Shown here piece after piece: positions 60,028-64,000 of a stretch of 64,000 nt of DNA; position 1 is the first letter of the stretch, and the number at the start of each line of letters is the position of its first letter. The DNA is taken from assembly GCA_017541325.1 (NCBI GenBank), contig JAFXZI010000012.1:72831-136830 (forward strand), in the 5' to 3' direction. The DNA is from Bacilli bacterium. Lineage in GTDB: Bacteria; Bacillota_I; Bacilli_A; RF39; UBA660. Made by a program: the position numbers and the translations under genes. The notes under the pieces are model-generated. The model did not search any database, was not told the DNA's origin, and was given only the letters and a program-made list of their open reading frames with translations.

Positions 60028-60669
60028 TTATCCAAATAAATGAAAATTATATAATTGATTCATTATATGTGGCAATATATTTATAAGTATAAAACCTAAA
60101 GTATATATACTAAGTGGAACAAGTATAATATGTTTCTTACTTTTTAAATTATTACTTAAATTATGTAGTATTACAATAAGTGTTGCAATTATATATAAGC
60201 CTATTACAAAACTAATATATACAAATATATTCCTTGGATTATCCTGCATTATAGGATTACTTAAAACCGATGATAAGACTGCACCATTCATTAAACACAA
60301 TCCAGTAATACTATGAGAAAACAAAAATATTAATCCAAAGACTGGAACAAACATTCCAATAAAGTGCCCTGCAATAAAGAAGATATATCCTCCAATCCAC
60401 ATACCAAAAGCTGTTTCACCAGGAGCTCCAAGTCCTGATACAAATCCTACAATTGCAAGAACAATTACCATTAAAATATCAATATTAATATCACCTAAAG
60501 TACCTTTTAAAGTATTACTGTTAATATTACTTGATTTATAACTTTTTACTACACCATGATTTAATCTTTCTAAAGAATTATATGCTTCTTTAATAGCTCT
60601 ATCTGGATTTGTTTCATATATTTTATTTAATTCTTTGATATACATATCAAATTCTTTTCTTCGTTCCAT
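60028..60669 (-). CDS. polytopic membrane protein (hypothetical)
   Basis: 213 aa with 5 TM segments after a soluble N-terminal helix. Confidence 0.4.
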   Translation of the reverse strand: MERRKEFDMYIKELNKIYETNPDRAIKEAYNSLERLNHGVVKSYKSSNINSNTLKGTLGDINIDILMVIVLAIVGFVSGLGAPGETAFGMWIGGYIFFIAGHFIGMFVPVFGLIFLFSHSITGLCLMNGAVLSSVLSNPIMQDNPRNIFVYISFVIGLYIIATLIVILHNLSNNLKSKKHIILVPLSIYTLGFILINILPHIMNQLYNFHLFG

Positions 60670-60719
60670 ATATACTCCTTCTAATAAAAAAGATTTAGGA
60701 ACCTAAATCTTTTTATATA

Positions 60720-61787
60720 TTATTTTTCACTTATTGCAAATACATATAATAAATCAGTATTTGTAGGAATAATAAATTCTGTTCCATTTTTTTCTTGATT
60801 CTCTAACATTAATATAGGTTGTTGTAATGAATCTCTTATCTCTAACATATCATTAAATGAATCTACTTCAACTACTTTATATTTATCTAAATCAAATCTA
60901 GTATTAATTCTTTGGATATATGAATGATAGTTAGATACAATTTTCTTTAGTTCAATTCTATATTTATCATTAGATGATCTGTGATTACTTATATATACAC
61001 ATAATAAGTTAATTGCAAATATATCTAATAATAACATTACTACTGGAGGTATTAAATACATAAAGTCATTATATTTTTTATCACATATTAGAATACTATC
61101 ATTACTTTCAACTAAGTCATCATTAATATCAACTGCCATTGTCTTTGTAGTTAATGGTATTACTAACGAAACTACAGAATCATTACTTTTCTCTTCTGAA
61201 AATTCTTGACATGATCCAATTGTTTTAACATGAAGATTAACTGTTAAAGTACTTTCTATATTACCTAAACTATAAGTATTTACAAATTTCTTTATTTTAT
61301 CATTATATTTATTATAATCAATTTTAATATTTTCATTAATATTTATATTACTCTCGTTATTAGAATATCCAACTTTAGTTTTTACTAAAGTATCATTATA
61401 ATTATATAATGATTTATTTGTATTCTTATCTTTTACATCAACAAAAGCTTCTATATAGTATGAATATGTAAAATCAATATTCTTTTTACCAGTATCAATT
61501 GTATAATTGAAGTTTGCATCAATATAATCAATTAAACTTGCAATATATTGCCTTTCGTTTTCAGCATACTTTTTATCAAAAAATTCATTTTCTTTCAAAT
61601 ATACTTTGTAATCAATATTACTATTTTCTACATATTCTACATATTTATTTTTTGTTTTGCTAAAAAATATTCCTGTGAAATATATAAAAATAAGCGTCAA
61701 TAGTACTATTACACATATGTAAATAGTAATAATACTTTTTTTTCTAGCACTATCTTTAAACATCTTATTTACTTCATCTTTTCGCAT
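60720..61787 (-). CDS. bitopic membrane protein (hypothetical), TasA-locus associated
   Basis: 355 aa with an N-terminal TM anchor and a second TM segment near residue 250. It is Asn/Lys-rich. Confidence 0.4.
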   Translation of the reverse strand: MRKDEVNKMFKDSARKKSIITIYICVIVLLTLIFIYFTGIFFSKTKNKYVEYVENSNIDYKVYLKENEFFDKKYAENERQYIASLIDYIDANFNYTIDTGKKNIDFTYSYYIEAFVDVKDKNTNKSLYNYNDTLVKTKVGYSNNESNININENIKIDYNKYNDKIKKFVNTYSLGNIESTLTVNLHVKTIGSCQEFSEEKSNDSVVSLVIPLTTKTMAVDINDDLVESNDSILICDKKYNDFMYLIPPVVMLLLDIFAINLLCVYISNHRSSNDKYRIELKKIVSNYHSYIQRINTRFDLDKYKVVEVDSFNDMLEIRDSLQQPILMLENQEKNGTEFIIPTNTDLLYVFAISEK

Positions 61788-61811
61788 AATAGTACTCCTT
61801 TCTATATCTTT

Positions 61812-62960
61812 TTATTTTTCAAATAATGATCTGAACCATAAAGTAGGTACTCCGATATATTTTATCTTTATATTTACTACTCCTTCTATATCATCAGCAC
61901 TCCTGAATTCAGAGTCATTATCTTTATTAGCGTCACCTTTTGTAATATAACTTGTTTGTCCATTTACAGTTCTAATATCTACTATTCTATGAACTGTTTT
62001 AATTCCATTATAGTTAAAAACTATTATTTGTCCTTTCTTAAGTGTTTGTCCTTCATATTTCTCATATATAATTGCGTCACCCTTATCAATAGTTCCTGTC
62101 ATACTTTTAGAACCTATTACTATAAGTCCATATTTAAACTGACAAGATATTAACATTACAAATAGTGTTAATATGATAAATACAACTGCAGTCACAATTA
62201 TATTTTTCTTGTCTTTATCTCTTTTTGCTGCAAATTCTTTCTTTTTATAAATACTTTCAAAGATAAAGAATAATATTAATGGTATAAACATTCTTAAGAA
62301 AGATCTCATAAGAATATATATTTTTGGAATAATAGGAACTAAATATAAAGGAAGTGTTGTTATTAATCGATAAGCTATAATTCCTTTAGATCCATATCTA
62401 GTAACCATATAATTAAATAATAAGTTACATGATATTGATGCGAATAGAATAAATCCAACTACAAGTAGAAAATCATCTATTCTATTTAAATCATATATTC
62501 CAATATTTACTAGTAAATCAATTAATGTCATCATTACAAGTATTAAGAACCATGATGGATTAATCTTTTTACCTTTATGAACTAATACTGTATCTTGTAT
62601 CATATATCTTCTTCTTATTAGCTCGGATACGATAATTGTTATTGTTATTGGAATAAATACATTTATTATATTTTTTAAATTAAATATATATTTATTCTTT
62701 TCGAATCCAAAATATAAACCTAACAAGTAGAATAAAGCTACATATATTACTCCAAATATGATCATTAATATTAATGTTTTCTTTTCATATATTGATTTAA
62801 TACTTTTTCTTTTAAACAGAAAATGTGAAATCATACAATATGCAACTAATATTAATGCTAAAACCATTCTATTGATAACACTTGATGCAAAGAGGATAAA
62901 GAATAAGAATATGATCATTATAATTTCAAAAATATATATTTCTAATTTTTCTCTTCTCAT
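61812..62960 (-). CDS. fusion of polytopic membrane domain with C-terminal SipW-type (archaeal/ER-like) signal peptidase I domain
   Basis: About 8 TM helices, followed by IVIGSKSMTGTIDKGDAIIYEKY...IKTVHRIVDI...ITKGDANKDND. These are the S26 Ser box and His/Asp-type boxes typical of SipW/Sec11-like enzymes. Confidence 0.55.
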   Translation of the reverse strand: MRREKLEIYIFEIIMIIFLFFILFASSVINRMVLALILVAYCMISHFLFKRKSIKSIYEKKTLILMIIFGVIYVALFYLLGLYFGFEKNKYIFNLKNIINVFIPITITIIVSELIRRRYMIQDTVLVHKGKKINPSWFLILVMMTLIDLLVNIGIYDLNRIDDFLLVVGFILFASISCNLLFNYMVTRYGSKGIIAYRLITTLPLYLVPIIPKIYILMRSFLRMFIPLILFFIFESIYKKKEFAAKRDKDKKNIIVTAVVFIILTLFVMLISCQFKYGLIVIGSKSMTGTIDKGDAIIYEKYEGQTLKKGQIIVFNYNGIKTVHRIVDIRTVNGQTSYITKGDANKDNDSEFRSADDIEGVVNIKIKYIGVPTLWFRSLFEK

Positions 62961-62996
62961 ATAATCCCTTCTTTATCTACTTTCCATTAAGTATTA

Positions 62997-63524
62997 TTAA
63001 GCAGCAGGACTTGCTACATAAGTAACATTAATAGTTGTTGTTGAATCTTCAGCTTGAACTGGTGTTTTAATTAATTTAACATCAACTTTTACTTTAGCAG
63101 TTGCTTGAGCATTTAATGTTTGAGCTCCAGTCCATTCAGCATAACTACCACCACTTGGTTGATAATATACTTTTACTTCAAAGAATTCACCTTTTGAATT
63201 AGTTATTGTAGGAACAGCAATTGATGCATTTACATCTGTTTCTTTATTTTTTATTTCAAACTCTGTAGAAACTGTTTCATTTAAAATCATATTTTCAATT
63301 GTAAATGTTGCAGTTGTTGCATTGTCTGCTGAACTAATAGCAGTTACTTTTCCAGTTACTCCAGAATTTACACCATCGTATACAACTTTTAATGTAGTGT
63401 CTCCAGCAGCTGCTGTTGCATTATTGATCTTTAATGTTTGACTTGATACTACGGCATATCCAACTCCAAGAACTAGGACTAAAGCAACTATAGCTAAAGC
63501 AAAAATACTTTTTCTATTTTTCAT
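62997..63524 (-). CDS. secreted TasA/camelysin-like protein candidate (SipW substrate)
   Basis: 175 aa. Has a signal peptide, then GVGYAVVSS in the same position as the GGGTWAAFND region of TasA. It is Thr/Val-rich with a beta-rich look. It lies adjacent to the SipW-like gene. Confidence 0.4.
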   Translation of the reverse strand: MKNRKSIFALAIVALVLVLGVGYAVVSSQTLKINNATAAAGDTTLKVVYDGVNSGVTGKVTAISSADNATTATFTIENMILNETVSTEFEIKNKETDVNASIAVPTITNSKGEFFEVKVYYQPSGGSYAEWTGAQTLNAQATAKVKVDVKLIKTPVQAEDSTTTINVTYVASPAA

Positions 63525-63750
63525 CCTATTCTCACCTCCATATCTTCTTTTACTATGGGAACTAACAATAGTCTTAATACCGTTCCCATAGTATTAAAAA
63601 CTTTTAATAGTTTGAATGCCTATCCTAAACTACAATTAAATTATAATGCACAAAAATGTAAAAAATCTATAGTTTTACGTAAAAAGTATTTCATTTTACA
63701 CTTATTGTGTTAAACTATAATTGTAAAGATAAAAAAGGATTGTGAAAAAT

Positions 63751-64000
63751 ATGAATAGAAAGTATTACTTTTTCCTATTCTCTATTTGCTTTTTAGTATT
63801 AATAATGGGAATTGGATATGCAACCGTTAATGATGTTACTTTATCTGTTAACGGTACGGCATCAGCTGATGAAAACGGAACAATAAAAATAACAAATGTT
63901 ACTTTAACTGGAAGTAGTAATGTAACTGCATCTAATCCATCTTGGACTGATACAACTGTTAGTTTTTCTGCTACATTTAGATTAGGTAATAATGATGCTT
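63751..64000 (+). CDS. paralogous TasA/camelysin-like secreted protein candidate (5' part; runs off the window)
   Basis: MNRKYYFFLFSICFLVLIMGIGYATVNDV carries the same G[IV]GYA[TV]V motif after the signal anchor as 62997-63524. An AAGGA RBS precedes it. Confidence 0.4.
   Translation, partial: MNRKYYFFLFSICFLVLIMGIGYATVNDVTLSVNGTASADENGTIKITNVTLTGSSNVTASNPSWTDTTVSFSATFRLGNNDA

Follow-up and report, generated by a model that had tools for sequence, protein, structure and literature searches.

Which proteins does a large, membrane-embedded signal peptidase serve when two leader-bearing proteins are encoded beside it, and what do these proteins build? This question is raised by a locus at the end of a 64,000-nucleotide stretch of a Bacilli bacterium genome (contig JAFXZI010000012.1, positions 72,831 to 136,830; the whole stretch is called the window here). 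The window is AT-rich (~26% G+C). Four minus-strand genes with short gaps between them encode proteins of 175 amino acids (aa) (62997-63524), 382 aa (the peptidase, 61812-62960), 355 aa (60720-61787), and 213 aa (60028-60669), and a fifth gene runs divergently on the plus strand. The initial annotation had read these genes as a biofilm or matrix-fibre locus with a SipW-type peptidase and TasA/camelysin-like substrates. In this study, we propose with a probability of about 0.6 that the locus encodes a sortase-independent donor-strand surface-fibre (pilus) system, kin in kind to Tafi, archaeal threads, and AbpX, and more distantly to Bacillus TasA. Both the predicted fold of the subunit and the conserved gene order agree with a fibre or matrix locus as a general idea, which survives the loss of the TasA assignment.

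Catalytic domain of the locus peptidase

The catalytic domain of the 382-aa protein occupies aa 277-382 (61812..62132 with the stop codon, minus strand). The protein matched TIGR02228, the archaeal/endoplasmic reticulum (ER)-type signal peptidase I model, with 78.5 bits against a cut-off of 51.85 over residues 251-373. Ser286 (SKSM), His324 (VHRIV), and Asp349 (GDANKDND) aligned with the catalytic Ser, His, and Asp of human SEC11A and SEC11C, and the arrangement is of the Sec11 type, with no Ser-Lys dyad. All three residues were invariant in 24 homologues (47-81% identity, all ~381 aa). The catalytic domain of the AlphaFold2 model matched SipA, SEC11, LepB, and LexA. The Ser and His boxes described in the initial annotation were thus borne out, and the protein, judged from its sequence, is a signal peptidase I of the ER/archaeal type. 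More than 1,000 database proteins matched it. The best 120 were all ~381 aa and were mostly covered over their full length, which indicates that the fusion of the catalytic domain to a membrane domain is no assembly accident.

SipW is considerably smaller and lacks a polytopic N-terminal domain. The SipW equivalog model NF046067 (189 positions) gave 40.8 bits with the locus peptidase against a cut-off of 190, so the proposed match to SipW was dropped. The candidate was also rejected as a SipW orthologue on its topology, since nine transmembrane (TM) helices are predicted and none of them is C-terminal.

Leader and candidate donor strand

The 175-aa protein has a signal anchor that ends in GVGYAVV, and the protein encoded by the divergent gene begins with MNRKYY...MGIGYATV. 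The G[IV]GYA[TV]V motif had been noted at both anchor ends, and it proved to be confined to them. In a six-frame translation of the whole 64 kb, the broader pattern G[IVLAMT]G[YF]A occurred at two sites only, at the signal-anchor ends of the two divergent genes.

We then describe the leader in the family of the 175-aa protein, where it comprises residues 1-24, MKNRKSIFALAIVALVLVLGVGYA (63453..63524, minus strand). The G-[YF]-A box was present in 144 of 150 family representatives, and the remaining six were close variants. Among the 144, Leu was found at position -8 in 85% and at -6 in 93%, and Gly at -5 in 87%. The three residues before the predicted cut were nearly fixed: Gly at P3 in 100%, Tyr at P2 in 98%, and Ala at P1 in 100%. 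Ordinary signal peptides show much less conservation than this leader, which could be used as a search key for substrates of the peptidase.

TasA is cut at GGGTWA|AFND, where the aromatic P2 residue blocks the housekeeping peptidase LepB, and TasA therefore needs the dedicated SipW (PMC10269814). Placed against this site, the motif of the locus has Gly, an aromatic residue, and Ala in positions P3, P2, and P1, as the earlier comparison with the TasA cleavage region had suggested. The G-Y-A box looks like the same solution as the aromatic P2 of TasA. From the -3/-1 rule and the analogy with TasA, cleavage is predicted after Ala24.

The segment after the predicted cut, residues 25-40 VVSSQTLKINNATAAA (63405..63452, minus strand), is a candidate donor strand. 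The family logo showed an alternating, conserved hydrophobic pattern of V/I(+2), V/I(+5), L(+7), I(+9), G(+11), and A(+13). The predicted mature N-terminus is V-V-S-S, and the family consensus at these positions is V/A, V/I, S/N, S. From this pattern we infer that the segment may act as a donor strand.

The 175-aa pilin-like subunit

The gene at 62997..63524 on the minus strand would encode the major pilin-like subunit of the system. The AlphaFold2 model of the 175-aa protein had a predicted local distance difference test (pLDDT) score of 88, with an all-beta core above 95. DSSP assigned no secondary structure to the N-terminal extension, which covers the first ~45 residues of the monomer model. 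Both structure searches ranked full-length donor-strand pilins first, and the best matches, in libraries without the AbpX entries 9SJ2 and 9RHP, were the Sulfolobus thread, AbpA, and Fim/Cfa. The core of the model appears to be a beta-sandwich resembling solved members of the TasA superfamily. TasA itself was not among the top structural matches and is not the closest neighbour of the model. These results point to a donor-strand pilin fold with moderate strength, because generic immunoglobulin (Ig)-like domains scored only slightly lower.

The sequence comparisons gave a different picture from the TasA/camelysin similarity that had been claimed. The 175-aa protein had no Peptidase_M73, TasA, or camelysin match in Pfam and NCBIfam at E<=1, and neither library assigned it to any other meaningful family. 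When 63 diverse family members (the 175-aa protein and 62 relatives) were searched, none matched Peptidase_M73, DUF1102, or another TasA-superfamily Pfam family at E<=0.1. The family profile, compared with Protein Data Bank (PDB) sequences, found no chain of TasA or its superfamily at E<=10. The initial annotation had itself stated that a lack of TasA/camelysin similarity would refute it, and the similarity is absent at the sequence level.

This bears on the reading of the locus as a true TasA/camelysin and SipW biofilm-matrix operon. Such an operon would have an ER/archaeal-type peptidase that adjoins secreted proteins with a TasA-like aromatic P2 and Ala P1, as is seen here. However, the low SipW equivalog score, the missing Peptidase_M73 match in the subunit and its 62 relatives, and the rank of TasA in the structure searches all speak against it, as do the length of 382 aa with nine TM helices and the DUF5305 partner described below. 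We consider a true TasA operon very improbable.

The family of the subunit is large. A word-indexed search found 423 matches. An exhaustive search gave 1,444 clusters at 50% identity, and 512 of these reached E<=1e-10. The predicted mature protein has an isoelectric point (pI) of 4.76 and contains 9.9% Asp+Glu. A BsaA-type intermolecular isopeptide triad (Asn-Glu-Lys) was considered and rejected, as the mature subunit has no invariant Lys. The C-terminus of the subunit has the form A-x-P, here ...V-A-S-P-A-A (window 62997-63020). The C-terminal Ala and Pro were invariant in 29 close homologues, and the Ala was near-invariant in the 63 diverse members. This end could be the last strand of the fold, or a processing or recognition signal.

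Conservation of the locus across genomes

The initial annotation placed the peptidase between the two leader-bearing genes. Both of them lie upstream of it, and its downstream neighbour is the 355-aa gene (60720..61787, minus strand). This gene encodes a DUF5305 membrane protein with two TM helices (~14-45 and 241-268), a predicted external domain, and a cytoplasmic tail. It matched PF17231 (DUF5305) with 34.3 bits against a cut-off of 29, and its TM helices are placed as in the published description. An accessory role for DUF5305 proteins has been proposed for TafG and for the AbpX loci. By analogy, the 355-aa protein is presumed to be an accessory subunit of the peptidase.

A genome scan with the single peptidase sequence found no relatives. 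With an alignment as query, a scan of species-representative genomes yielded 57 loci. All were in metagenome-assembled genomes (MAGs) from human or animal gut, rumen, or faeces with labels such as Bacilli, Firmicutes, 'Tenericutes', Erysipelotrichaceae, and Clostridia. In profile searches of the open reading frames (ORFs), the gene just upstream of the peptidase encoded a pilin in 49 of 52 loci, and the gene just downstream encoded a DUF5305 protein in 56 of 56. A co-located dedicated signal peptidase I is a trait of the TasA superfamily, and it was found in the same 49 of 52 loci. Two or three pilin genes stand in tandem in some loci, and at least one leader-bearing protein of at least 350 aa was encoded nearby in 28 of 40.

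The large leader-bearing proteins of other loci carry DUF285/BspA-type leucine-rich repeats (LRRs), ricin-type lectin, glycoside hydrolase family 3 (GH3), or Flg_new domains. Loci with GH3, ricin-type lectin, or long DUF285/LRR arrays on such proteins include L022:10323-13025, L054:12104-13783(-), L017:6343-8340, and L047:3985-6645. It is unusual for a pilin-type leader to precede an enzyme domain, and this arrangement suggests the display of glycan-active modules. Other members of the family are fusions of the pilin domain with BspA-type LRRs or with Hint domains. One locus (L006:1-2491, minus strand) contains a second, more divergent pair a few kb from the main locus, with the peptidase at 585-1724 and DUF5305 at 1-569. 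This pair adjoins a 231-aa protein with an L-A-V-G-F-A leader, and thus some genomes carry two such systems.

These data can be set against the possibility that the peptidase is a housekeeping enzyme that happens to lie beside unrelated secreted proteins. Signal peptidase genes are common, and many secreted proteins carry A-x-A-like sites. However, the near-invariant gene order over 57 species contradicts it, the leader is conserved far above a generic signal peptide, and the window encodes another S26 peptidase elsewhere (41903-42460). A housekeeping role is barely credible.

A more serious alternative is that the locus exports and sorts surface proteins that do not polymerise. The leader and the next segment would then be a recognition tag for the peptidase, the 175-aa protein would be a monomeric surface or secreted Ig-like protein, and the large proteins would be independently displayed enzymes or adhesins. 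The conserved segment from +1 to +13 could indeed be an extended recognition strand for the peptidase, and GH3 enzymes are unusual cargo on pilus tips. No anchor or assembly factor was recognised at the loci, and the structural match to pilins is moderate. On the other hand, full-length donor-strand pilins came first in both structure searches, and some family members join the pilin domain to adhesins. The most constant gene encodes a small, conserved, single-domain subunit just before the peptidase (49/52), which is a typical layout for a major pilin. The precedents Tafi, AbpX, and BsaA have the same gene partners. We regard export without polymerisation as the main alternative, with a minor chance of being right, and prefer the donor-strand fibre.

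The 783-aa leader-bearing protein

The plus-strand gene at 63751..64000 is represented in the window by its 5' end (83 codons) and runs past the window end. A longer contig of the same organism, with an identical peptidase, provides the full locus (designated L001). There the gene is complete at L001:6859-9210(-) and encodes 783 aa. The initial annotation had described two small secreted proteins. This holds for the 175-aa protein, whereas the product of the divergent gene is large and multidomain. Its order is a leader ending in MGIGYA, the shared strand segment, an Ig-like region, FN3, Hint, a conserved C-terminal region, and a Listeria-Bacteroides-like repeat. The family has 34 database proteins, and the G-[YF]-A box was kept in the 19 that were aligned.

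The two proteins had also been called paralogues. A comparison of the pilin family with the 783-aa family by hhalign gave a probability of 96.8% and an E value of 2.4e-10 over the first 45 columns only. Full-length paralogy was rejected, as the profile similarity ends after ~45 residues and the bodies are unlike. By sequence comparison, what the two proteins have in common is the leader and the next strand, not the body. With the same leader and strand, the 783-aa protein could join the fibre.

The FN3 assignment draws on solved fibronectin chains, which the profile matched at E 7e-8, and on Pfam matches in family members. In the Hint module, Cys484 of the CL[VI][EK]GTK block and His554 were invariant in 19 homologues. 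The 783-aa protein itself scored 13.5 bits against the Pfam Hint cut-off of 29.7. Hint matched 10 of 19 homologues and Hom_end_hint 11 of 19, all at E <0.1. The region also aligned at E 2e-9 with the Hint domain of P0321, which passes five Pfam cut-offs. P0321 is a 397-aa protein from the exhaustive search in which a pilin-family domain is fused to a C-terminal Hint/intein-like domain ending in ...VAHNKGCK, and the cut-offs it passes include those of Intein_splicing, PT-HINT, and Hint. This fusion indicates that Hint modules are recurrently attached to this fibre family. In the 783-aa protein, Thr-Asp (L-T-T-D) stands where splicing inteins have their C-terminal His-Asn, a replacement at odds with splicing competence. 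Because of this replacement, only N-terminal cleavage or thioester chemistry is plausible. The terminal Listeria-Bacteroides-like repeat was read by eye; Flg_new did not match here, and PF09479 matched two family members.

The polytopic N-terminal domain of the peptidase

The initial annotation had described the N-terminal half of the peptidase as polytopic with about eight TM helices, in agreement with our prediction of eight helices within ~240 aa and one anchor helix. The eight-helix domain covers aa 1-240 (62241..62960, minus strand). A Lys-rich loop follows, and the ninth (anchor) helix lies at aa 247-276 (62133..62222, minus strand). From the positive-inside rule, this helix would bring the catalytic domain to the outside of the membrane. 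The AlphaFold2 model gave the same order, namely eight helices, the Lys-rich loop, the ninth helix, and the beta-rich catalytic domain. Its mean pLDDT was 78, with ~80-90 over the membrane domain.

The predicted structure of the domain appears to have the eight-helix membrane fold of the CPBP/Abi proteins, and its best structural match was SpdC. The fold of the CPBP family is used by intramembrane proteases with the motifs EExxxR, FxxxH, and HxxxN/D, in which the His residues of FxxxH and HxxxN serve in catalysis. SpdC is described as a non-catalytic scaffold, and APH-1 is also a scaffold. In the 24 homologues, S112, E113, R116, D148, D163, N179, N183, R188, R198, and R223 were invariant, and no His was invariant within residues 1-250. 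Only S-E-x-x-R and N-x-x-x-N were found as invariant motifs; the full CPBP set is absent, and the S-E-x-x-R spacing differs from that of EExxxR. No Pfam family, including PF02517 (Rce1-like), matched the domain in the 24 members at E<=10.

It was considered whether the CPBP-like domain may be an active intramembrane protease. The peptidase would then be a two-protease machine that makes a second cut or degrades the leader. The invariant Glu113 and Arg116 in a TM helix, together with N179-x-x-x-N183, are reminiscent of CPBP motifs 1 and 3. However, the domain lacks any invariant His, its first motif has a deviating spacing, its best match is the scaffold SpdC, and no Rce1-like Pfam match was found. 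We assign a second protease activity a low probability. Since the motif His residues are absent and the best match is a scaffold, the CPBP-like domain is most likely an intramembrane docking or scaffold module for the leader, as far as the predicted structure indicates. A CAAX-protease-like fold without the catalytic His parallels SpdC-SagB and APH-1 in gamma-secretase, and this half of the protein could explain how a signal peptidase gains substrate specificity.

Proposed assembly of the fibre

In the donor-strand fibre that we prefer, the 175-aa subunit and the 783-aa ancillary protein would be exported by Sec and held in the membrane via the L-x-L-G-[VI]-G-Y-A leader. The CPBP-like eight-helix domain would dock the leader inside the membrane, and the dedicated peptidase, with the DUF5305 protein, would cut after the leader Ala. 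The cut may free the amphipathic N-terminal strand, which would enter the beta-sandwich of the next subunit by donor-strand complementation and so build the fibre. The 783-aa protein would join as a tip or nucleator, carrying FN3, Hint, and repeat domains; its counterparts in other species carry lectin, LRR, or GH3 domains.

Several points weigh against this model. The model draws on gene content, catalytic residues, leader conservation, gene order, and predicted folds. The 175-aa family has no sequence link to the Pfam families or solved chains of the TasA superfamily, and the CPBP-like assignment comes from the predicted structure only, as Pfam finds nothing in the domain. A weaker A-x-A-like site at +13 to +15 (within G-T-A-x-A, +11 to +15) leaves doubt on the cleavage point. 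No LPXTG motif and no C-terminal TM anchor were found in the leader-bearing proteins across the 57 loci.

A bolder extension of the model is speculative, and we hold it to be unlikely as a whole. The CPBP-like domain would be a pseudoprotease that acts as the intramembrane receptor for the LG[VI]GYA leader. The fusion and the DUF5305 protein would form a self-contained processing and assembly platform of an unrecognised, very large class of Gram-positive gut pili with interchangeable cargo, from lectins and LRR adhesins to GH3 enzymes and Hint modules. In the 783-aa protein, the Hint module would make a C-terminal thioester in a Hedgehog-like manner, either releasing the fibre-attached part or linking it covalently to a nucleophile on the cell surface or the host.

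Transcription and neighbouring genes

The last of the four minus-strand genes encodes a 213-aa protein with four TM helices (60028..60669). Directly 3' of its stop codon, a terminator-like hairpin AAGGGGT-TAAT-ACCCCTT is followed by TTTTT (59985..60009, minus strand), and a metallophosphoesterase gene lies beyond. The hairpin is likely the end of the transcription unit. Given its position right after the last stop codon and the different gene beyond it, the four minus-strand genes are probably one transcription unit. The divergent intergenic region between the 175-aa and 783-aa genes (63525..63750) presumably contains the promoters of both. A promoter scan of the AT-rich DNA gave 57 sites compared with 50.8 expected, which is the level of shuffled sequence.

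Two further membrane proteins had been counted in the locus by the initial annotation. The DUF5305 protein is a conserved part, as described above. The 213-aa protein is not conserved with the system, though it probably belongs to the same transcription unit: it had no family match in Pfam and NCBIfam, and profile searches of the locus ORFs found it in the organism's own locus (L001) and in 0 of 57 related loci. It could serve this lineage as an accessory or anchor protein, or it could have no connection to the system. The 213-aa protein, the metallophosphoesterase, and a 216-aa protein were all rejected as conserved parts, as they had no homologue in the other loci.

Other features of the window

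A separate sortase-type pilus locus lies at 39954-45579 on the minus strand. It encodes a sortase (39954-40916), a 326-aa surface protein (40909-41889), its own bacterial-type S26 signal peptidase (41903-42460), which recalls the SipA/LepA enzymes of streptococcal pilus loci, and two DUF7601 proteins (42559-43611 and 43702-45579). The C-termini read ...LTG, ...ITG, or ...PATG before a TM helix and a basic tail, and these signals are not canonical LPXTG motifs. Parts of a type IV pilus or pseudopilus were also found on the minus strand, namely an A24 prepilin peptidase (16946-17707), a T2SSF platform protein (17719-19158), and, at 694-2187, a 497-aa protein whose N-terminus has a methylation motif. 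Together with the locus described here, three different filament systems are encoded within 64 kb. In C. perfringens, type IV pilus proteins are reportedly needed for the export of BsaA.

A class B penicillin-binding protein (PBP) with PASTA domains is encoded at 2202-4445 (minus strand), next to a MraW/RsmH methylase gene, which indicates that the host makes peptidoglycan. A wall-less, Mollicutes-like host, raised by Tenericutes and Mycoplasma labels on related MAGs, was rejected because the window encodes this PASTA-domain PBP and a sortase. The stretch with the lowest G+C content (~21%) lies at 34000-37000 on the minus strand. It encodes a 516-aa protein (34673-36223) and a 199-aa protein (34081-34680), both without a Pfam match, and a 233-aa LRR protein (36207-36908) that adjoins an SMC gene.

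Comparison with known systems

Outside Bacillus TasA, fibres of small subunits that are processed by their own archaeal-type signal peptidase have come to light only recently (Tafi 2025, AbpX 2026). The locus described here points to a large unannotated branch of such fibre systems, with more than 1,400 subunit clusters at 50% identity. It offers handles on the private substrate set of a signal peptidase and on an unstudied class of gut fibres, and current models are not overturned. The interchangeable lectin, LRR, and glycosidase partners point to a role in gut glycan adhesion or processing.

B. subtilis SipW-TasA-TapA and C. perfringens SipW-BsaA share with the locus an ER/archaeal-type peptidase that serves fibre subunits specifically, an aromatic residue at P2, and an ancillary protein that has been suggested to donate or receive a strand. 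However, their subunits belong to the Peptidase_M73/TasA family, to which the 175-aa protein has no match, and the Asn-Glu-Lys isopeptide triad of BsaA has no conserved Lys here. To our knowledge, the SipW-TasA and BsaA systems have no DUF5305 equivalent.

The thread pilin Saci_0406 of Sulfolobus acidocaldarius (7pnb) and AbpA of Pyrobaculum (7ueg) are the best structural matches of the subunit, with a beta-sandwich and an N-terminal tail. Both have been placed in the TasA superfamily (bioRxiv 10.64898/2026.01.04.697558). They differ from the 175-aa protein in that identity is ~11-15% and no sequence profile links them. The Tafi paper describes the loci of Saci_0406/AbpA-type pilins as organised very differently from the peptidase-containing taf-type loci.

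For the membrane domain, the CPBP/Abi proteins SpdC/LyrA of S. aureus (6u0o), Rce1 (4cad), and gamma-secretase APH-1 are the relevant comparison. SpdC/LyrA and APH-1 likewise lack the catalytic His and are physically coupled to another enzyme. Here, in contrast, the domain is covalently fused to a signal peptidase, has no PF02517 match, and deviates in motif spacing from the superfamily.

In the Tafi system of haloarchaea, the locus peptidase TafD is required for pilin processing, and the DUF5305 protein TafG is a proposed helper (PMC11821415, PMC12337348). As described there, the Tafi loci (TafA/E pilins) resemble the present locus in their signal peptidase I, their DUF5305 partner, and their tip or adapter proteins that share the pilin N-terminal region. 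The same descriptions give TafD four TM helices and another second domain, and the pilins carry mostly Tat signals. Sequence similarity to them is absent, and the hosts here are bacteria.

The closest organisation was found in the AbpX-type loci of archaea and Bacillota, in which a signal peptidase I with ten TM helices and a DUF5305 accessory protein are encoded along with minor subunits and variable tip proteins (bioRxiv 10.64898/2026.01.04.697558). The present locus has the same combination of a TIGR02228-type polytopic peptidase (ten TM helices there, nine predicted here) and DUF5305, and likewise a small major subunit, minor or tip proteins with variable domains, and proposed donor-strand assembly. 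With this shared organisation, the locus belongs to a kind of system that is already known. The subunits differ: AbpX has a pI of ~4.0 and ~15% acidic residues, compared with 4.76 and 9.9% here, and mature positions 2/4 are aromatic/acidic in AbpX and Val/Ser here, a comparison that rests on the predicted cut. LPXTG and SLH anchors, a sortase, and c-di-GMP genes are all missing from the immediate neighbourhood of the locus, in contrast to the AbpX loci. The present hosts are uncultured gut and rumen MAGs. Neither a CPBP/CAAX fold nor Hint domains are mentioned in the AbpX preprint (bioRxiv 10.64898/2026.01.04.697558). New or different compared with the known loci are the unlinked subunit family, the leader LG[VI]GYA, the CPBP-like fold of the polytopic domain, partners with Hint, GH3, and lectin domains, and the occurrence in uncultured gut lineages only.

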